From: Neocallimastix sp. 'constans'
Lineage: Eukaryota
Direction: 5' to 3'
DNA length: 64,000 nt
Assembly: GCA_050613775.1 (NCBI GenBank)
Contig: JBODTK010000015.1
Location: forward strand, 496,001 to 560,000
A program made the translations under genes and the position numbers. Numbering within the stretch: position 1 is the stretch's first letter; the number at the start of each line of letters is the position of its first letter. This document shows positions 4,883 through 47,522 of this stretch, one piece after another. The notes under the pieces were generated by a model. The model searched no databases, had not been told where the DNA came from, and worked only from the letters and a program-made list of their open reading frames with translations.

Positions 4883-5686
4883 ATTGAAAAAAAAATAGAA
4901 ATAAAAAGAAAATAAAGTAACACGGTAGAACACTACAAGTTAGAAAATAACACCGTAGAATACTACAAGTTGAATATCACACAAGTTGAAAATCACACAA
5001 GTAGAATATTACACAAGTAGAATGAAAGTTTCCTATGAAACTATAGAGAGAAGTAGGCAAAGGTAGAACTTTCCTCCACCGTAGAACGAGTTCTCCACCA
5101 CTTGATAACTATTTAGTAGTTATCGTTTGAATAATAATACTTCTTAAAATTATTATTATTTGAACTTATTATTATTATTTATTTATAAAAATATTTTATT
5201 TTTAATATTTTTATTAAGAATAAATTTTTAATAATCGTTACATTTTTATTAAGTACATTTTTCTCTCTTTTATATTTAATAATTAAAATAAAGTAATATT
5301 TGTTTGCAAAAATAAACTATTTAATATATTTAAGCATAATTCTTATATTTTAATTAATAGTATTGAATATATATAAAAATAATTTAGTTAATTATACAAA
5401 AAAATAATAATTAAAATAATTATTGAATATATAGTAATAATTAAAAGAAATATTAAATATATTTCTTTTATAATAAATAATATAAAAGTTATTAATATAA
5501 TATAATAATTTAAAATAAAAATAAAAATAATTTAGAAAATTAACTATTTATAATTATAATAATTTACTAAAAATATTTAATATTAATTTTTAATTTAATT
5601 TAATTAATTATATTATTCTAATTAATTTAAGTAATTTTAGTAATTTAATTAATTTAATTAATTTATAATAATTTATTATTATTAAT

Positions 5687-8318
5687 TGATATAAAATGAA
5701 AATAAAAACTTTAATTATTAATAAATTATTTTATTAATAATTACATAAAAATAAATCAATTAATCACTTGATTAATTATCATATGATTTATAAAATGATC
5801 CAGAAATAACGTGATATAAGATAAATTTATGTAATATCATAAATTCTCTAAAAATACATAAAATTAATGTAAACATAAAATTTATAACATAAATTTTATG
5901 TTATGTAAATATGTAAATAATTTATAAATTAATTAAGTTTTATTTTATTTCATTTTAATTATTTTTATTATATTTTTATTATATTTTTATATGTTCTAAT
6001 TATTATAATATTTTATTATTTATACTTTTTAATTCTTATTATTTTAAAATAGTTTATAATTAAAGAGTATTATATAAAGAATACTTTTTCTTTATATTTA
6101 TTCTTTGTAATTTTGCAGTTTTGCAAATTGCCATTCATGCAATTCAAATAGTTAAAATTATAATAATAAATTGCCAAAATAAAAATATTTTATTAGTAAA
6201 ATTAATTTAGTAATATTTAATATGAAGTTATAAAAATTATTAGTTATTTAAATAAATTTAAATTATAAAATAAATAAATAAATATTTAATAAATAAGTAA
6301 ATAAAAATATATTAAATTAATAAATTTCATAAATAAATTATATAACTTCTCCCAGTAAGAGAGTGAACCAAGGTGTACTTTATCAAATGGTGGAGATATC
6401 GGTTCTCTTTGGAGGGGAAGAAGTTATAATTATTTTACAATAATTATTAAAAAAAAAATAATAATATAAAAAAAAAAAAATAAAAATAAAAATATATTAT
6501 TTCTAAATTTCTTAAAAACATATTTCAATAATTTAAAAATTAATTTTAAAAATTAGTTTTATTAAATTTTTTTTTAGTATTTTATATATAAATATATCAT
6601 ATATATATTTATATAATTTATAACAAAATTGATTAAATAGTATTATATATAAATATATTGTAAAATATATTTATATAATTTTATTAAAAGAATTGATTAT
6701 ATTTTATTATATATATAAATATATTGTAATATATATTTATATTTATTAAAAAAAAAAAAAAATTTTTTTTTAGTTAATTTTAATAATTATTTTATTTTTT
6801 TTTAACTCTAATAATGATAATTATTTTATAAATTAGTAATTATCTTTTATATTTTAATTAAAATAGTTATATATATAAAATGAATAATAATTCAGGGAGA
6901 AGGATAACTCCCTATAACCAAACCAATAATAATAATAATAATAAAGAAGAAATCCTCAAAAAGTATTTAAAGAATATTATAAAAGAAAATTACCCCCATA
7001 AACAATATTTTGAAGCAAAAGAGATTCCTAATATTCTCAAAGTAATTATAAAGAAAGAAATAATTGAAATTGAAGGTTTGGAGGATGAAGATTCAGTAGA
7101 AATGTTAATTAAACTTTACGAATCGGAGCTCCAAGATATATCCTTATCAGATATGTGTGACTCAATTTTATTTTTCATTCCAGAAGAAAAGCAAGATTTT
7201 ATTTTTCAAAATTTTAATAACCAAAACTTTAAGGATCAAGGTTGTAACACTAAAAATTATAACAATCAAAATTTTCATAATCAAAACTTTAATAATAAAA
7301 ATTTTATTAATCAAAATTTTTATAATCAAAATTTTATTAATCAAAATTTTTATAATCAAAATTTTATTAATCAAAATTTTTATAATCAAAATTTTTATAA
7401 TAAAAATTTTAACAATCAAAATTTTATTAACCAAAAATTTTATAATCAAAATTTTAATAATCAAAATTTTTATAATTTTAATTTTAATAATTCGGATTTC
7501 AATAATAATTTCAATAATAATTTCAATTATAATTTCAATAATTTTAGTGATAATAACTATAATAATCCTAAAAATAATCAGAACAATTATATCGGAATTA
7601 ATCAAGATAATAAAATTAATAATGGAAATAGTAATATTAAAAATAACAAGGAAATTAATAGCAACGAAGAATTTAAAAATGAAATTAAAATTATTAAGAA
7701 TAAAATTAATAAAAATAATAAAGTTAAGGAAGAAATTTTAAATAAAAATAGTATTAATAACATTAAGACTGTTATTAATAAATCTAATATTATTAATAAT
7801 ATTGAAAAGGTACAGGAGATTAAAATAAATAGCATAAATACGGATCTGAATAAAAATCACAATATGATTAATGAGAAAAATATGGTTAATAAAAATAATA
7901 ATACTAATGAATTGAAATACAACAAAATTAATATTGATAATAATAATATTAAAGATAATGAAATTATTAAAACTAGTAATAGTTATAATTCTGAAAATAG
8001 CAAGAGTAAAAAGCCTAAATTGCAAAACAATAAAATTATTATTGATTATAATTCTATTAAAGATAATGAAATTATTAAAATTAACAGTAAAAATAATTTC
8101 GAAAATAACAATAATAAAAAGCAAAATTTGAAAAACAATAAAATTAATATTAATGACAATAATATTTCCGATACTAAAAATTTAAACAATAAATTAAAAA
8201 TATTATGGGTATTGAAAAATTATAAATATCGGAGAAAATTATTATTGTTAGTAACAAAAAAAAAAAAAAAAAAAAAAAAAAATTTATTATTGTTATTAAA
8301 TTAAAATTATTTTTAACA

Positions 8319-12543: not shown

Positions 12544-14874
12544 CGTAACAGCATCGTTACACCTTGGTTATCGTTACTAAATGGTGCCTACCTTGCCTTA
12601 CATACTAAATATCACTGATTCGAATCTTTTCTTTTATCTTTTGGAATAAAATATTTATTTAGTTATTAATTTTTTATTCATTTAATTTTATAATAATATT
12701 TATTTAAATAATTATCATGTATTCATTTAATTATAAACCAATCATGTAGTTTAATTATAAACTTTCTTAATATAAAATATAAAAATCATGTATTATTATT
12801 TTATTTTGACTCTTTGAGTCGATGTTAACAAAGTAACGTATCTTAAAATTAATATTAAATAAAAAATAATATAAAACCATAATTATGAAAATATTAAACA
12901 AAGATAATTTAGTGTAATAACAAATAATAAAATCTCACATAAAGTAGTTTGTTTATAGTTAACACATCTACAATGACCTAGTGAGATAAAATAAATAACA
13001 AAATCGTTACAATATCGACTCCCGTTGGAAACACACTCGCTACCTTGTGGTAGATGTGTTAATCCACCCAACATACCACTAACCTTTCATTATTTTATTT
13101 ATATTCAAAAGTTTTAATAATATTTTAGATAAATTTACTCTTGCTGTGGACTCTATTACTTCTGTTACTTCCTGAATCCTGATTGGTGATCTCTGATAAA
13201 AATAATTATGGTTTATAAAGTTTATGAAATTATCTACCTGAACAAGCATCCATCCATCAAGTTTTGTATCTGTTATCCATCTATCAAATGGAACCCCGAT
13301 TTTCATCAAACCAAGTGTGCATCCATCAAGAGGATCAAGTTACCCACCATATGAAAAACTTTAATTTAAAATAACGCTCCAGAATATCGAATAAACTCAC
13401 TACCGGTACAGGCTACAACTAATGCGCAACTCACCCTAATCTAATCCATGGAATACATCTTTTGTTTTTCCTATTCTTCTACTATTCTAATATCTCTAGC
13501 TTCCGTATTCATGGATATCTCTTTTATTATTCTGTTTTTAATTCTACTAATCTTCTTCGAGTTGGTGTTAGATTAGATCGTCTGGTATCCGATCGTAGAG
13601 GCGAAAATATACTTTTATATAATTTAATTTGGTCTGAATATGTTTTTTCATTTTTATTCTTGTTTAAATAAGCAAAATCATTGAACTGAATTTCTATATC
13701 TTCAATTTTATTATTATAATAATAATTATTTATTTCCTTCTTAATGATTGAAACACTAGTACCATCTGAAATGATATGGTGCATATTAATTAGTAAAATT
13801 TCATTTTTGATGAATCCTACTCTTATTAAAGGACTTATTGATAAATCGAATGGACGAATAAATGACTTTGCATTTTCATAATCATTCAAAATTTAATTTA
13901 CAATTATCATCAATATATCCATAAATACTGGTATTTCCATTAATTTCTTTTGTATAATATTTAGTTTTTAATATTTCATGCTTATTAAATATTTTAGTAA
14001 TTGAAGTTTTAATTTTTTGAATATTAATATCATTTTTTAAAGAATATTGGAATATTATAAACAATACTTTTAGGATTCTTAATTGAATCAATGTACATTC
14101 CTAATTGTTGTGAAGTAACAGGAAATTCCTTATTTCCACATTTTTCAATAATTTCAATTTTCTTTTCATTATTCTTATCATTCAATAATTTTTCTATGTA
14201 TTCACTTAATTCATAAACAATTGGTTTTGATAAAATATCTCTAATATTTAATTTTAATTTATATTATACAATATTAAAGCTACTAAAACTATCACCACCA
14301 ATATCGATAAAGCCTGAATTCCTTCCTATTATATGTTTAGAAATATTCAATGAATCACTAAAGATCGAACATATTTCTTTTTCAATTAATGTTTTTGGAG
14401 GGGATTGTAACGATATCAGCATCGTTATACCTTGGTTATCGTTACTAAATGGTGCCTACCTTGCCTTACATACTAAATGTCACTGATTCGAATCTTTTCT
14501 TTTATCTTTTGGAATAAAATATTTATTTAGTTATTAATTCTTTTATTCATTTAATTTTATAATAATATTTATTTAAATAATTATCATGTATTCATTTAAT
14601 TCTAAACCAATCATGTAGTTTATAAACTTTCTGAATATAAAAATATAAAAATCGTATTATTATTTTATTTTGACTCTTTGAGACGATATTAACAAAGTAA
14701 TGTATCTTAAAATTAATATTAAATAAAAAATAATATAAAACCATAATTATGAAAATATTAAATAAGATAATTTAGTGTAATAACAAATAATAAAATCTCA
14801 CATATAGTAGTTTGTTTATAGATAACACATCTACAATGACCTAGTGAGATAAAATAAATAACAAAATCGTTACA
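12544..14874 (+). mobile_element. Non-autonomous TGTAAC..TTACA LTR element (candidate Tf1/sushi-type self-primer) enclosing an NRPS fragment
   Basis: Two similar LTRs of about 470 bp (12544-13011, 14406-14874); ATATCGACTC directly after LTR1; leader 13012-~13603 shared in part with the 46-47 kb copy; GGAGGGGAT PPT-like tract directly before LTR2. No clean TSD. Confidence 0.8.
13604..14404 (-). pseudogene. NRPS fragment: thiolation (PCP) domain plus N-terminal half of a condensation domain, with stops and frameshifts
   Basis: Manual translation gives PPKTLIEKEICSIF..FIDIGGDSFS (phosphopantetheine GGDS motif), FPVTSQQLGMY..YNIP, HEILKTKY, RPFDLSISPLIR and the condensation core HHIISDG. Confidence 0.9.
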
Positions 14875-16406
14875 ATAACGCATTTAGAAATTCAGCAAAA
14901 ACACTCATGTATTGGGCTAAATTATCGGAAAACTTCTGGAATTTCACAATAAAGCATGCTTTTATTTATATGATTCCACATTCAGGAAATAATATTTTAA
15001 TTCCTGATGAAGTATTTTATAATAAAAAAGTAAATATAAAACAAAGAACCTTTGGATGCACTTGCTACTTCAGAGATCAAACCCCACACAAATTTAAATT
15101 TAAACCAAATTCAAGGAAAGGTATTTTCCTTGGTTTTGATAAGAAATATTCATATATTATTATGGACAAAGAAAATAGAAAATTAAATTATGTTAATGAA
15201 TGCATTGAAGAAGAATAGGGAAATTTTGAATATCCAAATAACGGTTTTCAAGGCCCTTATTTCTCCTTTACTATAATGGACTTTGATGAGAGAAACATTA
15301 AAAATAGAAATTTAAATGACGATAATAATTATGATGACAATAATCATTTAAATGAAAATATTAATTTAAATTAGAACTATATTTTAAACATATAATAATT
15401 TAAACATAGATAATAACATAAATGAAAATAATAATTTGAACGATAATTTAAATGAAAACGTAAATGTAAATTTAATTGACAATAATAATTTTATCGAAAA
15501 TAACAACATTTATGGAGAAGAAATTAACCTATCAAAGGAAAATAATATTGTAGGAAAAGATAATTTAAATAAAAATAATTCAAATAAAGAAATTAATTCA
15601 AATGAAATTGGAAATTCCAATGAAATAGAATTTTTACTCAAAAATAATATCAAAATTAACAATAATAAAATTAATACCGTTTTAAAAGATAATACATTTT
15701 TAAATGGAAGTATTAATAATCATAATTCTCAGAAAAATACCTTACTTAATATTCCTGTTAGTTACAAAAATTTTATTGATAATACGACTAAAAATTTTGG
15801 ATTGAAATATAAAAATGGTACAAATTTACACGATAAAAAACTCCCAATAAATCCTGGTGTTATAAATATTCCTTCGATTAAAAATAAAGGTAAAGGAAAA
15901 ATCATTGAAAATGACGAAAATTTCAATTTTGATGAAAGTGAAAAAAGTTTTAATAAAAATTTTTCAAAAATTGAATCAAAATTTTCTAAAAAGCTATTGG
16001 TCAAAATAAAATCATCAGAACCTAATTCATCAAATAATAATATAAATAATATTTTAAATTATTATTTATCAATTTTACCTGATAAATTTTACATAAATCT
16101 TCATCTGAACATTTAAATAATTATAAAACACATGATCATAATAATAATATTAATGATAGGCATAAAATTATTGAAATTTCTAATAAAACTATGGATAATA
16201 AAAATTTGTTAGAAACAAAAATACAAAGCTTTAATTAAAGGAGTAATGTTATAAATATTAATATATTAGTGTAAGATATGTGACCAAAAATAATAATAAG
16301 CCACATATTATGTTTACTATAAATACAATAAAAAAGTACAAAGTTATGTATATACATTATTCTTTATTCTTATTATATAATAAAAAAGAGATTCCTACTT
16401 TTCACA
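14875..16406 (+). mobile_element. Copia remnant: integrase C-terminal fragment, Asn-rich linker, pol C-terminus and a 160-bp LTR (16247-16406)
   Basis: FW..TFGCTCYF..KFKPNSRKGIFLGF integrase/SH3-like segment; LLETKIQSFN* resembles the pol end LLTKIQEY* at about 21580; AAAGGAGTAA then TGTT..CACA. Confidence 0.7.
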
Positions 16407-17425: not shown

Positions 17426-20400
17426 TGTCAGAAATAAGTTTAATATAATTAATAAATAATTAATAAATAATTAATAAAAAATAAATAAATATAAAATAAG
17501 TATAAAATAAATTTTAGTGTAAATAAATAAATATAGTTATAAAGAATAAATTTATGTATACTGTGGCGTATATCATTTAATGATATATATCATATGAATC
17601 GATGTAAAATTATTATAGATAGGAATATAAATTTTAAATGTAAATAATACTATGTAGGAAATTTTCTTGAACAAAAATTTAATAAATAAAAAGTGTGATT
17701 TATAACAGATTAAGAGTCTCATTGACTCAATAAGTGAGTGTTAATAATTTATTGTGTTTAGTGTATTTTTAATAAGTGTGAATAAAATGACAAACAAGGA
17801 AAATGCTACCTTGGAAATCTTGGATAATTCCAATTTTAAATCATGGAAACAAGATTTGTTTCTTTTACTACAAGAAAGAGATTTGGAAAATTATATCTTA
17901 AAGGAAAGCATTAAAAAAATTTCCGAAGATGAAATACCTGAAGAAGAATGAAAGAATTATAAATCAGTTCCAGGAACAACAAGAAAATTCTATGATAAAT
18001 CTGTAACTAAGCCTATGTTAAAATGTGATGCCAGGGTCACTTTAATATTGAAGGTTTAAAAGACACACTCCCAAAAATAAATAATAAATATAAATGCAAG
18101 ATATGTGCAAAATCTAAGTTAAGAAATTTCCCTTTTATTCAAATATTAAAAGAGCAAGTGAGCCTTTTGAATTAATCCATATGGACACAGTTACTATTAG
18201 CGACTAATCTTTATACGGAAATAAATATATCTTATCTATCTTAGATGATTATTCAAGGTTCGGTTGGGTCATCTTCTTAAAATCCAAAGGTGACGTATTT
18301 AACGCTTTTCATAATTGGTTTTTAAAGGTGAAGAATATTTTTAATAAAAGTGTCAAACATCTTAGAACAGATAATGGAACGGAGTTTTCCAATAACAACT
18401 TTGATAATTTCTGTAACTTAAACGGTATCATTCATGAATACACTGTTCCTTATTCTCCTCAACAAAATGGAAGGATTGAACGCCTTCACGGTTCTCTTAT
18501 TCCTAATGCTAGAGCTATGTTGGAGGATGCACACCTTAATCACGTATTTTGGGAAGATGCAGTTGCTACTGCTAATTTTATATATAATAGAATCCCACAT
18601 AAAGGTATCAATAACAATGTTCCTTATGAACTTCTTTATGATGAAAAAGTGGACTTCGAGAAATTTAGAGTATTTGGATGTCAAGTTTTTTTTTATGTAC
18701 CCAAACAACTACGTAACAAATTAACCAACTCGGCTTTACCCGGAATATTTCTTGGATATGATAATAACCCCTCGGCTTTTCGTATTTATGATATTACTAA
18801 TAATAAAGTAGTTATCTCTCGTGCCGTTGTATTTTTTGAAGACTCACCCGGTAACTGTGATGCCCCTTCTTCTTCTCCGGACTTTATTAATCTTACTCCT
18901 TATTATGAAAACGGGGGAAGTGATATTGACGATGATATTGGTTTTCATAATAATAATAATAATATTAGTGATAATAATAATAATATTAACAATAATATTA
19001 TTGATAATGATAATTATAATAACAATAATAATATTAATCCAAATAATAATAATAATAATAATATTAATATTAATGATAATAACGAAAGTGCAGTCATAAA
19101 TACTCCATATAATAATATTAATACTAATAATAATGAAGTCAATAATGAAAATAATATAAATATTAATAAATATAATATAAATAATACTTCTCCAATTAAT
19201 CAAAATAATATAATTTATTCAAATAATTATAAAATTTTTTATGATCCACAGAATAACAGAAATTTAATTTTGTATCCAGCTCAAAAAATTTTTTCTGAAT
19301 CAGCCAATAATTTAAATAATAATAATTTACAATTAAATAATAATATATATAATAATTTAAAACAAAATTTTTCTTCTCCAAAACATTATTATGAGGATTT
19401 CAATTCTCAAAGTGGTCATTTAAAATAATTCAAATGGCAATTTTGAAAATTATAATATCCAAAATAATAATTATTCTGAATTAAATAATAAAAACTATAA
19501 TAATAAAAATGATAATTTAAATAATAATAAAATTAATAATTATTCAGGAAATGAAAATTTAAATTTGAATTTAATTCAAAAAAGTAAATTATATGATCAA
19601 AATTCAAATTTAACACAATTAAATAAACAAACAGGAAATTCAAATAATACAGGAAACAATTTAAACAATTTAATTTCAAATGGCAAGAAAAATGAAATTA
19701 GCAATAATGAGTATAATTCATATAATAATTCAAATAATGATTTTAATTCAATTAACAATGTAAATAAAAAAAATTTAATTGAAAATTTAAAAAATAAAAA
19801 TTTAATTGAAAATGTAAACAAACCAGGAAGTAGCAATGATAATATTATTAATAAACATAATTTAAATAAAAATAATGAAATTACAAATTTAAATAATTAT
19901 AATTATGAAATTGAAAATAAATTAAATAATTCAATTAACGAAATTGAATTTAATAAAGGAAAAAAAATAAATAATTATAATTTAAAAAGAAAATTAAATG
20001 AGAGTGAAAATAATGTAAACAAAAAGTATAAACAAATAATGACGAATATCTTAATAACAAATAAGACAATAGAATTAGACCCACCATTAACCTATGAAGA
20101 AATATTCGATAGACCAGATAAAAACTCATGGATAGAAGCTATAAATAAGGAATTAAAAAATATGGAAGAAAAGAAAGTTTTTGAAATAGTCAATGAAGTA
20201 CCAAAAGAAAAAAATTTAATCAGCTGCAAGTGGGTTTTTAGTTATAAACGAAACGATAAAGGTAACATAACAAAATATAAAGCAAGGTTAGTAGCAAGAG
20301 GATTTTCACAAGTGTATGATGTGGATTATGTTGACACTTTCTCACCTACCCTTAAGCAAGATTCTCTGAGAATAATTACTTCTATAGCTATTTATAATAA

Positions 20401-35439: not shown

Positions 35440-36659
35440 AATTTAATAAATATTATATGTAATTAAATTCTGATAGTAATTGAAAAAAAGTTGGTTTTTT
35501 TGCAAATAATTTTTTTAAGTATTTATTAAAAGTTTCTGAAACATTATTTGTAATATGCTCAATATTATCATAATAGTTCCAATTTTCAGTTTCAAAGTTA
35601 ATTAAATAAGTTTTTTTAAAATATTCTAAAAATTCTAAAAATTGAACATAATTATGTTCTTGGCACTCACTTTTTGTTTTACTATATATATCATATATAT
35701 ATTCAAGATTAATGAAAGGAAAGTTCGAAATATTATTATAATAAATATATAAATCTTTTATTTTTTCTACTTTATTACCACATAATTCTTTTTTTTTAAT
35801 TTCTAATGCTCTTTTAAAATGCCATATACAGTATTTAATATTTGTATTAATAAAAACTTTTTGTGCAGCATTATATACAGCTTTTTCAAAATCGCAATGA
35901 AATATTTTTGGTGTAATTTCAATACTATTATATTTACTAGAATTTTTTTTATTTCTTCAAATAATATTTCATAAGTTGTTTGCTTTTTATTTTTTAATAT
36001 AGAAAAGGAAGTAGTGTAAAAACAATTTAATTCTGTAACATAGGTTCTAGTTATGAATACTTGATAACTAAATATAGGTGCAATATAAAATGTGCCATCC
36101 GCAAAAATATGTTTATTTTTAGAAAATAACTCTGCTTGGAATGGAGATTGAAAAACAATTAAAATTATTTTTGTCATAAAATTTTCATCCCTTTTTGTTT
36201 TATAATATTTTGATTCATTGGGAATTTCATCAAATGTTGTTATATCAGGAGGTAGTTGTTTTCTTCTACTTCTTGTTACTTGGGATTTAATTGAATTATA
36301 TCCTGGACATATATAAGACCCATACCTTGAGAAATTTCATCATATGTAAGTTTTATATTTACATTAAAAGGAATTGAACTTTTTGAAATTTCATCTTTAA
36401 TTTTATATTTTACAATTGATTTAGCTGCTCTAAATTTATTTTCAAGATGATGTGAGTCATCATATTCTAAGATTTGATTCTCATTATTTAAAATAATGAA
36501 AGATGGACATTGATTTAATGTTTTATATTCTGTATATTTATATTTTTTTGAATTGTCTTTCCTTTTGGATGAGAGATTAAACTTATATTTTCTGTTTAAA
36601 ATAATTTGTTCTTTTCCTCTATTAGTTTTGCTTATTTCAATTTCTAGATTTTTCTCCAT
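35440..36659 (-). pseudogene. Mutator (MULE) transposase with FLYWCH-like N-terminus, frameshifted
   Basis: SKTNRGKEQIILNRKYKF (FLYWCH-like), FADGTFYIAP..QVF, HCDFEKA, WHFKRAL and HITNNVSETFN, matching the Mutator DDE motif series. Confidence 0.85.
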
Positions 36660-37600: not shown

Positions 37601-39051
37601 TGATATGAAATAGGAATTTATCTTGTTTCCCATTTCATAACTATTATGATTTTTATACTTGTCCATAACAAGTCTTTATATATTTAAATAATAACACTTA
37701 AATAAAAATATTTAATTCATTTTTAAATAAAATATTGTTTTATTAATATTCTAATATTTATAGGTAATTAGTAAACCTTTAATACAATTCTTTTATAACA
37801 TAATTCTAATAATCAAAATATAAAATTAATCAATATTAATTCTAATAATCAAAATATAAAATTAATCAATATTAATTCTAATAATCAAAATATAAAATTA
37901 ATCAATATTAATTCTAATAATCAAAATATAAAATTAATCAATATTAATTCTAATAATCAAAATATAAAATTAATCAATATTAATTCTAATAATCAAAATA
38001 TAAAATTAATCAATATTAATTCTAATAATCAAAATATAAAATTAATCAATATTAATTCTAATAATCAAAATATAAAATTAATCAATATTAATTCTAATAA
38101 TCAAAATATAAAATTAATCAATATTAATTCTAATAATCAAAATATAAAATTAATCAATATTAATTCTAATAATCAAAATATAAAATTAATCAATATTAAT
38201 TCTAATAATCAAAATATAAAATTAATCAATATTAATTCTAATAATCAAAATATAAAATTAATCAATATTAATTCTAATAATCAAAATATAAAATTAATCA
38301 ATATTAATTCTAATAATCAAAATATAAAATTAATCAATATTAATTCTAATAATCAAAATATAAAATTAATCAATATTAATTCTAATAATCAAAATATAAA
38401 ATTAATCAATATTAATTCTAATAATCAAAATATAAAATTAATCAATATTAATTCTAATAATCAAAATATAAAATTAATCAATATTAATTCTAATAATCAA
38501 AATATAAAATTAATCAATATTAATTCTAATAATCAAAATATAAAATTAATCAATATTAATTCTAATAATCAAAATATAAAATTAATCAATATTAATTCTA
38601 ATAATCAAAATATAAAATTAATCAATATTAATTCTAATAATCAAAATATAAAATTAATCAATATTCTAATTTTATTTAAAATATTATATACTAATTTTAC
38701 TGGATAATTAGGAACATTTATTAAAATATTATTTCTAATAACTATTTATACTAATTCTTCATTTTAAAGTTATGTTTATAAACAATTATTTATAAAATTA
38801 TTTAACTATTTAATATTTATAATATATTTATTTCTTATTTTTCTTAACTTTATTTATATTAATTATTAATTAAATATTTCGTTTCTTATCAATATCTCCA
38901 CCCTTTAAGACATAACTTCGTCCCTGAAGTTATTAAAAGAAAAAAAATTATTAAATAAGAACGAAATATTCTTGATTTCAGGTTCATATCTAGTTGTTAT
39001 TCACAATTTCAGTAGCAATGTTCAGAATTGTTTATACGAAGGTTTTCTTTT

Positions 39052-46260: not shown

Positions 46261-47522
46261 TGTAACGATTTTAATGATTTATTTTATCTCACTAGGTCAT
46301 TGTAGATGTGTTCACTGATAAACAAACTACTAAATGTGAGAATTTATTATTTATTATTACACTAAATTATTTTATTATTTAATATTTTCATAATTATGGT
46401 TTTATATTATTTTTTATTTAATATTAATATTAAGATATGTTATTTTGTTAATATCGACTCAAAGAGTCAAAATAAAATAATAATACATGATTTTTATATT
46501 CAAAAAGTTTATAATTAAAATACATGATTGGTTTAGAATTATATGAATATATGATAATTATTTAAATAAATATTACTATTAAATAAATGAATGAAAGAAT
46601 TAATAGCTAAATAAATATTTTATTCCATGGATTAGATTAGGGTGAGTTGCGCATCAGCTGTAGCCTGTACCGGTAGTGAGTTTATTCGACATTTTGGAAC
46701 ATTATTTTAAGTTAAAGTATTTCAGATAGCTGGTAGCTTGCTCCTCTTGATGGATGCACACTTGGTTTGACGAAAATCAGGGTTCCACTTAATGAACGGA
46801 TAACACAGATACAAAGCTTGATAGATGGATGTTTGTTCAGATAGATAATTTCACAAACTTTTAAAAACCATAATTATTTTTATCAGAGATCACCAATCAG
46901 GATTCAGAAAATAAAAGAAGTAATAGAGTTCATAGCAAGAGTAAATTTATATAAAATATTATTAAAACTTTTGAATATAAATATAATAATAATGAAAGGT
47001 TAGTGGTACGTTGGAGTGGATTAACACATCTACAACAAGGTAGCGAGTGTATTTTCAACGGGAGTCGATATTGTAACTATTTTAATGATTTATTTTATCT
47101 CACTAGGTCATTGTAGATGTGTTCACTGATAAACAAACTACTAAATGTGAGAATTTATTATTTATTATTACACTAAATAATTTTATTATTTAATATTTCA
47201 TAATTATGGTTTTATATTAATTTTTATTTAATATTAATATTAAGATATGTTATTTTGTTAATATCGACTCAAAGAGTCAAAATAAAATAATAATACATGA
47301 TTTTTATATTCAAAAAGTTTATAATTAAAATACATGATTGGTTTAGAATTATATGAATATATGATAATTATTTAAATAAATATTACTATTAAATAAATGA
47401 ATGAAAGAATTAATAGCTAAATAAATATTTTATTCCAAAAGGTAATCAATAAGATTCAAACCAGTGACATTTAGTATGTAAGGCAAGGTAGGCACCATTG
47501 AGTAACGATAACCAAGATATAA
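46261..47522 (-). mobile_element. Second copy of the TGTAAC..TTACA family, internally deleted: 5' LTR 47072-~47522, leader 46628-47071, partial 3' LTR 46261-46627
   Basis: Reverse-complement match to 12544-13455; the deletion joins leader to LTR at a shared TATTCCA. Confidence 0.88.

Follow-up and report, generated by a model that had tools for sequence, protein, structure and literature searches.

Tf1 is reported to prime reverse transcription with the first 11 bases of its own RNA, by way of an RNase H cut (PMC7175516). Such self-priming has been published for fungal Tf1/sushi elements and is presented as the expected mode in a large fungal group (PMC6317226, PMC7175516, bioRxiv 2022.12.06.519325). 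In the Tf1/sushi group it is described together with a three-duplex 'pretzel', the outer duplexes of which use sequence bordering the primer binding site (PBS) (bioRxiv 2022.12.06.519325; PMC4600332). For plants, self-priming is predicted in 12% of LTR elements and in most Tcn1 elements, and the same source gives an operational rule for a self-primer, namely a complement to the 5' LTR of at least 10 bp that starts 0-5 bp after the LTR (PMC6317226). The LTR elements of anaerobic gut fungi have been called largely uncharacterised (PMC13728883). A literature search at the level of titles and abstracts returned nothing on the priming of LTR elements in Neocallimastix or other anaerobic fungi; the 2024 survey by Navaratna et al. 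may cover PBS types.

The window analysed here is a 64-kb stretch of gut-fungal DNA with a G+C content of 20.7%, and it is a nest of LTR retrotransposons. Pfam annotation of 33 of the 42 listed open reading frames recovers three Gypsy-type and three copia-type elements with a reverse transcriptase (RT), and one MULE transposase fragment (35456-35956, -). No chromodomain was found by Pfam in any of these 33 frames, Gypsy integrases included, and no tRNA gene was found within the window. At 16404, 17708, 47886 and 50457 copia-type LTRs are followed by GATTAAGAGTCTC, the complement of which holds a CT-CTT-AA anticodon-loop pattern. The copia-type elements are therefore likely to use half-tRNA-Lys priming, with the Lys assignment read from the anticodon and not from a database. 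TGG-type PBSs occur in the Gypsy-associated and other LTR families at 5102 (-), 6388, 23105, 39174 (-) and 32080 (-); four of the five begin with TGGTGGA, which we take to be a tRNA-Ala site. A 36-nt unit is repeated about 27 times in an array at 37621-38856, inside a TGATAT-type LTR. Two copies of a further LTR family, with TGTAAC...GTTACA ends, lie among these elements:

12545-13011 (+): 5' LTR of copy 1, 467 nt long, with altered first bases and no intact canonical TG start, ending in ...GTTACA
13012-13601 (+): family internal region of copy 1, 590 nt, no recognisable gag or pol
13597-13601 (+): 5' part of the polypurine tract (AGAGG), separated from the 3' part by an NRPS insert
13602-14396 (-): frameshifted NRPS fragment (thiolation and condensation domain, Pfam; tblastn 13602-14401), about 797 bp, antisense to the element
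14397-14405 (+): 3' part of the polypurine tract (GGAGGGGAT)
14406-14874 (+): 3' LTR of copy 1, 469 nt, TGTAAC...GTTACA, with a 9-bp terminal inverted repeat
47522-46261 (-): copy 2, whole
47072-47522 (-): 5' LTR of copy 2, lacking its first ~20 nt
46621-47061 (-): internal region of copy 2, counterpart of 13022-13455
46261-46627 (-): 3' LTR of copy 2, 5'-truncated, 367 nt, with 3 substitutions and 1 indel relative to its own 5' LTR

The 5' LTR of copy 1 is 95.6% identical to 14414-14880 in blastn, and the two LTRs of copy 1, both included in an alignment of all four LTRs, differ by 10 substitutions and 5 indels. Copies 1 and 2 are 89% alike over the LTR and the interior up to the equivalent of 13455; beyond it, copy 2 has suffered a deletion at a 7-nt microhomology (joint 13448-14510) that took the polypurine tract and the start of the LTR. 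A reverse orientation of copy 1 was considered and rejected, as the purine tract precedes 14406. No clean target-site duplication was found for copy 1 (left ATATC, right ATAAC), and the left ends of both copies are damaged. Its left flank is AT-rich and non-coding, while the right flank (14875-16400) is a decayed copia integrase-region fragment that ends in a copia-type LTR end near 16404. The first 24 nt of the LTR (14406-14429) form a 9-bp hairpin, the second arm of which repeats the LTR's own 3' end; six bases of this hairpin are missing from the 5' LTR of copy 1.

Pfam matched none of the six frames of the interior, tblastn did not link it to the coding retroelements of the window, and no protein relatives were found outside its own family. 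An antisense open frame of 86 codons (13082-13339, -) matches only four near-identical family copies, and nothing longer was found. Of the changes in this frame 13 out of 36 are synonymous, against 7-8 in the other frames, which is too thin to call it coding. Two bacterial repeat proteins that matched the frame were rejected as homologues, their scores being sums of weak repeats with a best single stretch of 29.6 bits. In other public copies 13599 is joined directly to 14397, or 13594 is followed by a purine-rich 15-mer that leads to 14406; in shorter derivatives the 3' end follows on 13191 or 13373. Since these longer copies lack the NRPS piece and the interior has no coding capacity, the family, judged from its sequence, is a non-coding and non-autonomous LTR element of about 1.5 kb (467 + 590 + 469 nt). 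The NRPS fragment itself is present only in copy 1, where it splits the polypurine tract at a GG microhomology. It is about 60% identical to Piromyces and Orpinomyces NRPS proteins, its best relatives being gut-fungal, and it looks like a host-gene capture at that microhomology. Such elements can thus take up host secondary-metabolism DNA.

The 24 public runs that were searched consist of assembled contigs, and DNA of the window is present in herbivore-gut and faecal runs, which together with the gut-fungal relatives of the NRPS fragment points to an anaerobic gut fungus as host. Runs with family copies share identical contigs and look like the strain or species of the window itself (probably its own species), and are therefore not independent. 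About ten close family copies were seen, probably from one species. The summed contig depth over the PBS and leader is roughly ten times that of single-copy contigs (338-534 versus 39-47 in run X9), a ratio that is not a true copy number.

The preliminary description of this locus had proposed that the bases directly after the 5' LTR pair with a motif inside that LTR, and its coordinates for primer, PBS and stem all proved correct on recheck. The sites are the following:

12816-12825 (+): GAGTCGATGT, candidate self-primer of copy 1 and predicted nucleotides 1-10 of the RNA
13012-13021 (+): ATATCGACTC, PBS of copy 1, immediately behind the final ...GTTACA of the LTR, identical in copy 2
47261-47270 (-): candidate self-primer of copy 2, perfectly complementary to its own PBS
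47062-47071 (-): PBS of copy 2

Pairing extends over 10 bp with one G-U pair in copy 1 and over a perfect 10 bp in copy 2, and the helix can be extended by an eleventh pair to the last A of the LTR. None of 1000 dinucleotide-shuffled LTRs reached the perfect 10 bp of copy 2, and a single one reached the 10 bp with one G-U of copy 1; with Watson-Crick pairs only, the 8 bp of copy 1 were reached by 11 out of 1000. A perfect complement in the copy-2 LTR exists for 12 of the 43,814 window 10-mers outside the family that have at least three G+C, and for 2.3% (2,740 of 120,466) of all 10-mers. The same test on six other LTR/PBS pairs of the window gave no match in five, and in the sixth, a TGG-type element (33127-32081), an AT-rich 11-bp run with G-U that 4 out of 1000 shuffles also reached. 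The primer-PBS match at offset 0 from the LTR end is beyond chance. A tRNA-type PBS, the absence of which had also been claimed, was sought in copies 1 and 2 by TGG and anticodon-loop patterns. In copy 1 the TGG closest to the LTR end is 14 nt away from it, and copy 2 has none, which excludes a tRNA end at the usual place; a half-tRNA site is not supported either, as no YU-NNN-R loop occupies the position used by the copia PBS of the window (17708).

The imperfections of copy 1 were compared with the other copies. At 12824, an A, which makes the pairing perfect, is carried by 4 contigs in X1 (408/506 of the depth), 7 in X9 (1728/1789), 15 in X14 (475/511) and 8 in X7 (656/757). The 3' LTR of copy 1 reads GAGACGAT at 14680, the primer motif being mutated at 14683. 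This GAGACG variant, which the preliminary description had named as potentially refuting, does not refute the pairing, as it occurs in one of the four LTRs (the 3' LTR of copy 1) and is absent from the other three. Given the majority A at 12824 and this restriction of the 14680 variant, the two defects are read as private decay of copy 1. Set beside the rule of PMC6317226, copy 2 has a perfect 10 bp at offset 0, and copy 1 has 10 bp with one G-U that the majority letter restores.

A second LTR-leader helix surrounds the PBS:

12958-12985 (+): U5 arm of the U5-leader stem, 14 + 4 + 7 bp
13036-13063 (+): leader arm of this stem, separated from the upstream PBS by 14 nt

The perfect 13-bp stem that had been described (12959-12971/13050-13062) is confirmed, with none of 300 shuffles reaching 13 bp in either copy. 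Its length had been underestimated; the stem spans about 25 bp in three segments (12958-12985 with 13036-13063). In copy 1 it has a z-score of -4.24, with none of 200 shuffles as stable. Copy 2 forms 16 + 7 bp, plus 4 across a bulge (z -4.3). A T at 13049, which closes the one mismatch of the stem, dominates with 379/407, 502/502 and 53/64 of the depth. The PBS is located in the loop of this stem. On its 5' side there is only a 4-bp stem in copy 1 (12996-12999/13006-13009) and another one, also of 4 bp, in copy 2; this side can pair over a longer stretch with 12833-12840 in copy 1 only, and 12833 varies in 440/1052 of the depth. An Rfam search returned a single match at E 0.27, below threshold.

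Because the primer-PBS and U5-leader helices cross, nested folding can show only one of them at a time. In copy 1 the primer helix forms, with probabilities of 0.95-1.0 over 11 pairs. In copy 2 the stem forms and the primer-PBS helix has a probability of 0.0, with no helix when the primer is supplied in trans either. When primer and PBS were held open and a duplex of -12.8 kcal/mol was added, no pseudoknot penalty being counted, the ensemble plus duplex energies were -55.0 versus -53.1 kcal/mol for copy 1 and -60.0 versus -53.7 kcal/mol for copy 2. On these penalty-free energies, coexistence of the two helices is plausible.

Tf1-like, tRNA-independent self-priming is probably the correct reading of this family, and the best one, since copy 2 agrees with the published rule, no tRNA PBS fits and the defects of copy 1 appear private. 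What can be seen directly is the LTR pair, the polypurine tract, the lack of coding capacity, the 10-bp primer-PBS match and the 25-bp U5-leader stem around the PBS; the steps that would connect them are borrowed from Tf1. Pol II would start at G12816, 38 nt after the TATA-like box. The U5-leader stem would keep the PBS in an open loop, so that nucleotides 1-10 could bind it in a pseudoknot-like fold. The enzymes would be supplied by an autonomous partner element, the RNase H of which would cut after nucleotide 10, and its RT would extend the primer into U5-R. The 3' R copy would provide both new LTRs with their primer motif, and the primer would be copied back into the PBS during plus-strand synthesis, such that the two motifs stay matched.

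The nature of the partner bears on how this signature arose. No gag/pol partner, which the preliminary description had suggested finding, came up in six collection scans. Among viral contigs, two DNA patterns of the family gave 0 matches each and a Gypsy integrase query gave 0 confirmed matches; among metagenome contigs, the U5 pattern gave 0 matches. All 15 matches of the primer pattern in metagenome contigs were dismissed as chance, as they show no family similarity beyond the pattern, and so was the only match in genome contigs, on an archaeal contig of 59% GC. With the known distribution as a prior, a Tf1/sushi-type chromovirus would be the most likely partner. The self-priming signature alone does not name a superfamily, since self-priming is also predicted, from a PBS-LTR complement, in the TAR lineage of plant Ty1/copia elements (Houba, Osr-1; PMC6317226). 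The helper could instead belong to a copia or non-chromodomain Gypsy lineage of gut fungi, and self-priming would then have originated independently. The 25-bp U5-leader clamp would present the PBS, and a decoy hairpin in U3 would act as a switch that silences the primer in read-through RNAs and at the 3' end. We regard such an independent origin as unlikely.

Variation among the copies was followed at both motifs. The preliminary description had proposed covariation as a check. The majority letter at 12824 pairs perfectly; no compensatory change was seen among the copies. Four runs were inspected for PBS variation, with real cover in X9 and X7, one useful piece in X22 and none in X23. No substitution within 13012-13021 is listed in X9 or X7, in variant tables that are incomplete (they miss the change of copy 2 at 13032). 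A G-to-A change at 12821 is found on one contig each in X7 and X23 and on three loose ends each in X1, X9 and X7; the loose end with A continues ...AATATTGT, which marks a diverged LTR. This A would break the primer-PBS pair unless 13016 had changed as well, and no such PBS change is listed. Between copies 1 and 2, 3 of the 75 paired positions differ, compared to 72 of the 815 others, a difference that is not significant (one-sided p 0.10) and that was counted with a paired-position set one base off in the inner helix, at invariant positions.

These data leave some room for the complement to be a frozen by-product, created by a local inverted duplication at the GAGTC/GACTC hairpin or by a template switch in a founder, with another primer in actual use. 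The sampling of only about ten close copies, probably from one species and without compensatory change, speaks for it. The primer motif moreover has a partner in U3 (12806-12812); the 12821 variant strengthens the hairpin between them but would damage the PBS pair. Nonetheless, the first base of the complement is right at the LTR end, the place that a primer has to occupy, it is enclosed by a further LTR-leader helix of 25 bp, and no other primer candidate was found, so that we attach little likelihood to a by-product.

The surroundings of G12816, the predicted start of transcription, are as follows:

12778-12785 (+): TATA-like box upstream of the candidate primer (by 38 nt here, at -36 to -38 across 4/4 LTRs)
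12806-12822 (+): U3/R hairpin TTGACTC-TTT-GAGTCGA, 7 bp, the upstream arm a near-copy of the PBS
12870-12876 (+): second TATA-like box, at +54, conserved in 4/4 LTRs

The TATAAAA reported about 40 nt upstream of 12816 indeed starts 38 nt before it, although the motif is weak evidence on its own, with at least 60 occurrences in this AT-rich window. Relative to the primer, TATA-like boxes lie at -45/-44, -38/-36 and +54. A start driven by the box at +54 would exclude the primer from the RNA; for Tf2, starts downstream of the primer are reported to yield RNAs unfit for reverse transcription (PMC5341516). The RNA run X13 contains contigs identical to copy 1 at a depth of 3-8; they carry neither strand nor start, and DNA carry-over is possible. 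The end of U3 is a near-copy of the PBS (8 of 10 letters) and forms hairpins with the primer motif at 12806-12822, 47264-47280 and 46454-46470. The hairpin folds in three of the four LTRs and is lost in the mutated 3' LTR of copy 1. Folding predicts a primer-PBS pairing probability of at most 0.01 once U3 is part of the RNA, and the hairpin is thus predicted to mask the primer in any U3-containing RNA. In our view it would also cover up the primer's 3' copy, and the primer in any read-through RNA.

These observations also bear on a variant in which self-priming is real and the primer is internal rather than the capped 5' end, being released from an RNA that starts further upstream, or from a 3' R copy, be it in this RNA or in another. 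The several TATA-like boxes at -45/-44, -38/-36 and +54 would allow for it. Yet, in an RNA that includes U3 the U3/R hairpin takes up the motif, which then hardly pairs with the PBS, and the complementarity ends exactly at G12816, as expected for nucleotide 1; an internal primer is very unlikely. Finally, binding of a host RNA by the PBS, be it a displaced full tRNA, a half-tRNA as in the copia elements of the window or another small RNA, is very unlikely: both tRNA-type modes are present among the neighbours of the family (TGG at 6388, 5102 and 32080; CTCTTAA loop complement at 17708), but TGG is 14 nt away in copy 1 and missing in copy 2, no anticodon-loop pattern stands in the right place, and the perfect self-complement would be left as a coincidence.

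Returning to Tf1-like priming as put forward in the preliminary description, its signature holds (a 10-bp complement according to the published rule and no tRNA PBS), whereas the helix adjacent to the 5' side of the PBS is weak, compensatory changes were not observed and the scans yielded no partner. The family would work like Tf1 as far as its sequence can tell. Like Tf1 and Tf2 of Schizosaccharomyces pombe, Tj1, Tosmo1-3 and Tcry1 (Tf1/sushi, 'Fungi/Vertebrates' Ty3/gypsy chromoviruses), it lacks a tRNA PBS. As described for that group, the 10-11 nt after the CA of its LTR find their complement in a part of the LTR that lies downstream of a TATA-like box, and a second LTR-leader duplex surrounds the PBS. 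Unlike these elements, it has no gag, pol or chromodomain and its host is a gut fungus. Its U5-leader duplex is long (25 bp) and begins at a distance of 14 nt from the PBS, while that of Tf1 is described as adjacent; its duplex 5' of the PBS comprises only 4 bp or an alternative, variable pairing; and an extra U3/R hairpin covers its primer. The three-duplex 'pretzel' would thus be realised in part only.

The Tcn1 clade (Cryptococcus Tcn1, chytrid BatDenTy3-1, and moss and club-moss elements) offers a second likeness, as self-priming has been proposed for Tcn1 (PMC7175516). This clade is reported from a chytrid (PMC2864245), and a member in a zoosporic fungus would therefore be no surprise. 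In contrast to the Tcn1 clade, the family carries no RT, and the likeness lies in the priming signature. The likeness to the TAR lineage lies in the PBS-LTR complement, TAR elements being plant copia elements and the family residing in a gut fungus. With TRIMs and other non-autonomous LTR elements it shares terminal repeats, primer site and polypurine tract that flank a non-coding interior, and host-gene capture has been described for TRIMs as well (PMC6934838). However, TRIMs are given as smaller than 1000 bp with repeats of 100-250 bp (PMC6934838), compared to about 1.5 kb and 467-nt LTRs here, and the PBS of the family is self-complementary instead of tRNA-complementary; membership was rejected on both size and PBS type. 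If the self-priming reading is true, the range of predicted self-priming widens to include anaerobic gut fungi as well as a non-autonomous element, and a compact set of cis-elements (primer, PBS, U5-leader clamp, U3 hairpin and polypurine tract) is assembled within 1.5 kb. New are only the host lineage and the non-autonomous form. Self-priming itself is already known, with a demonstration in Tf1 and predictions for many elements of fungi, vertebrates and plants, and as a concept it stands unchanged.
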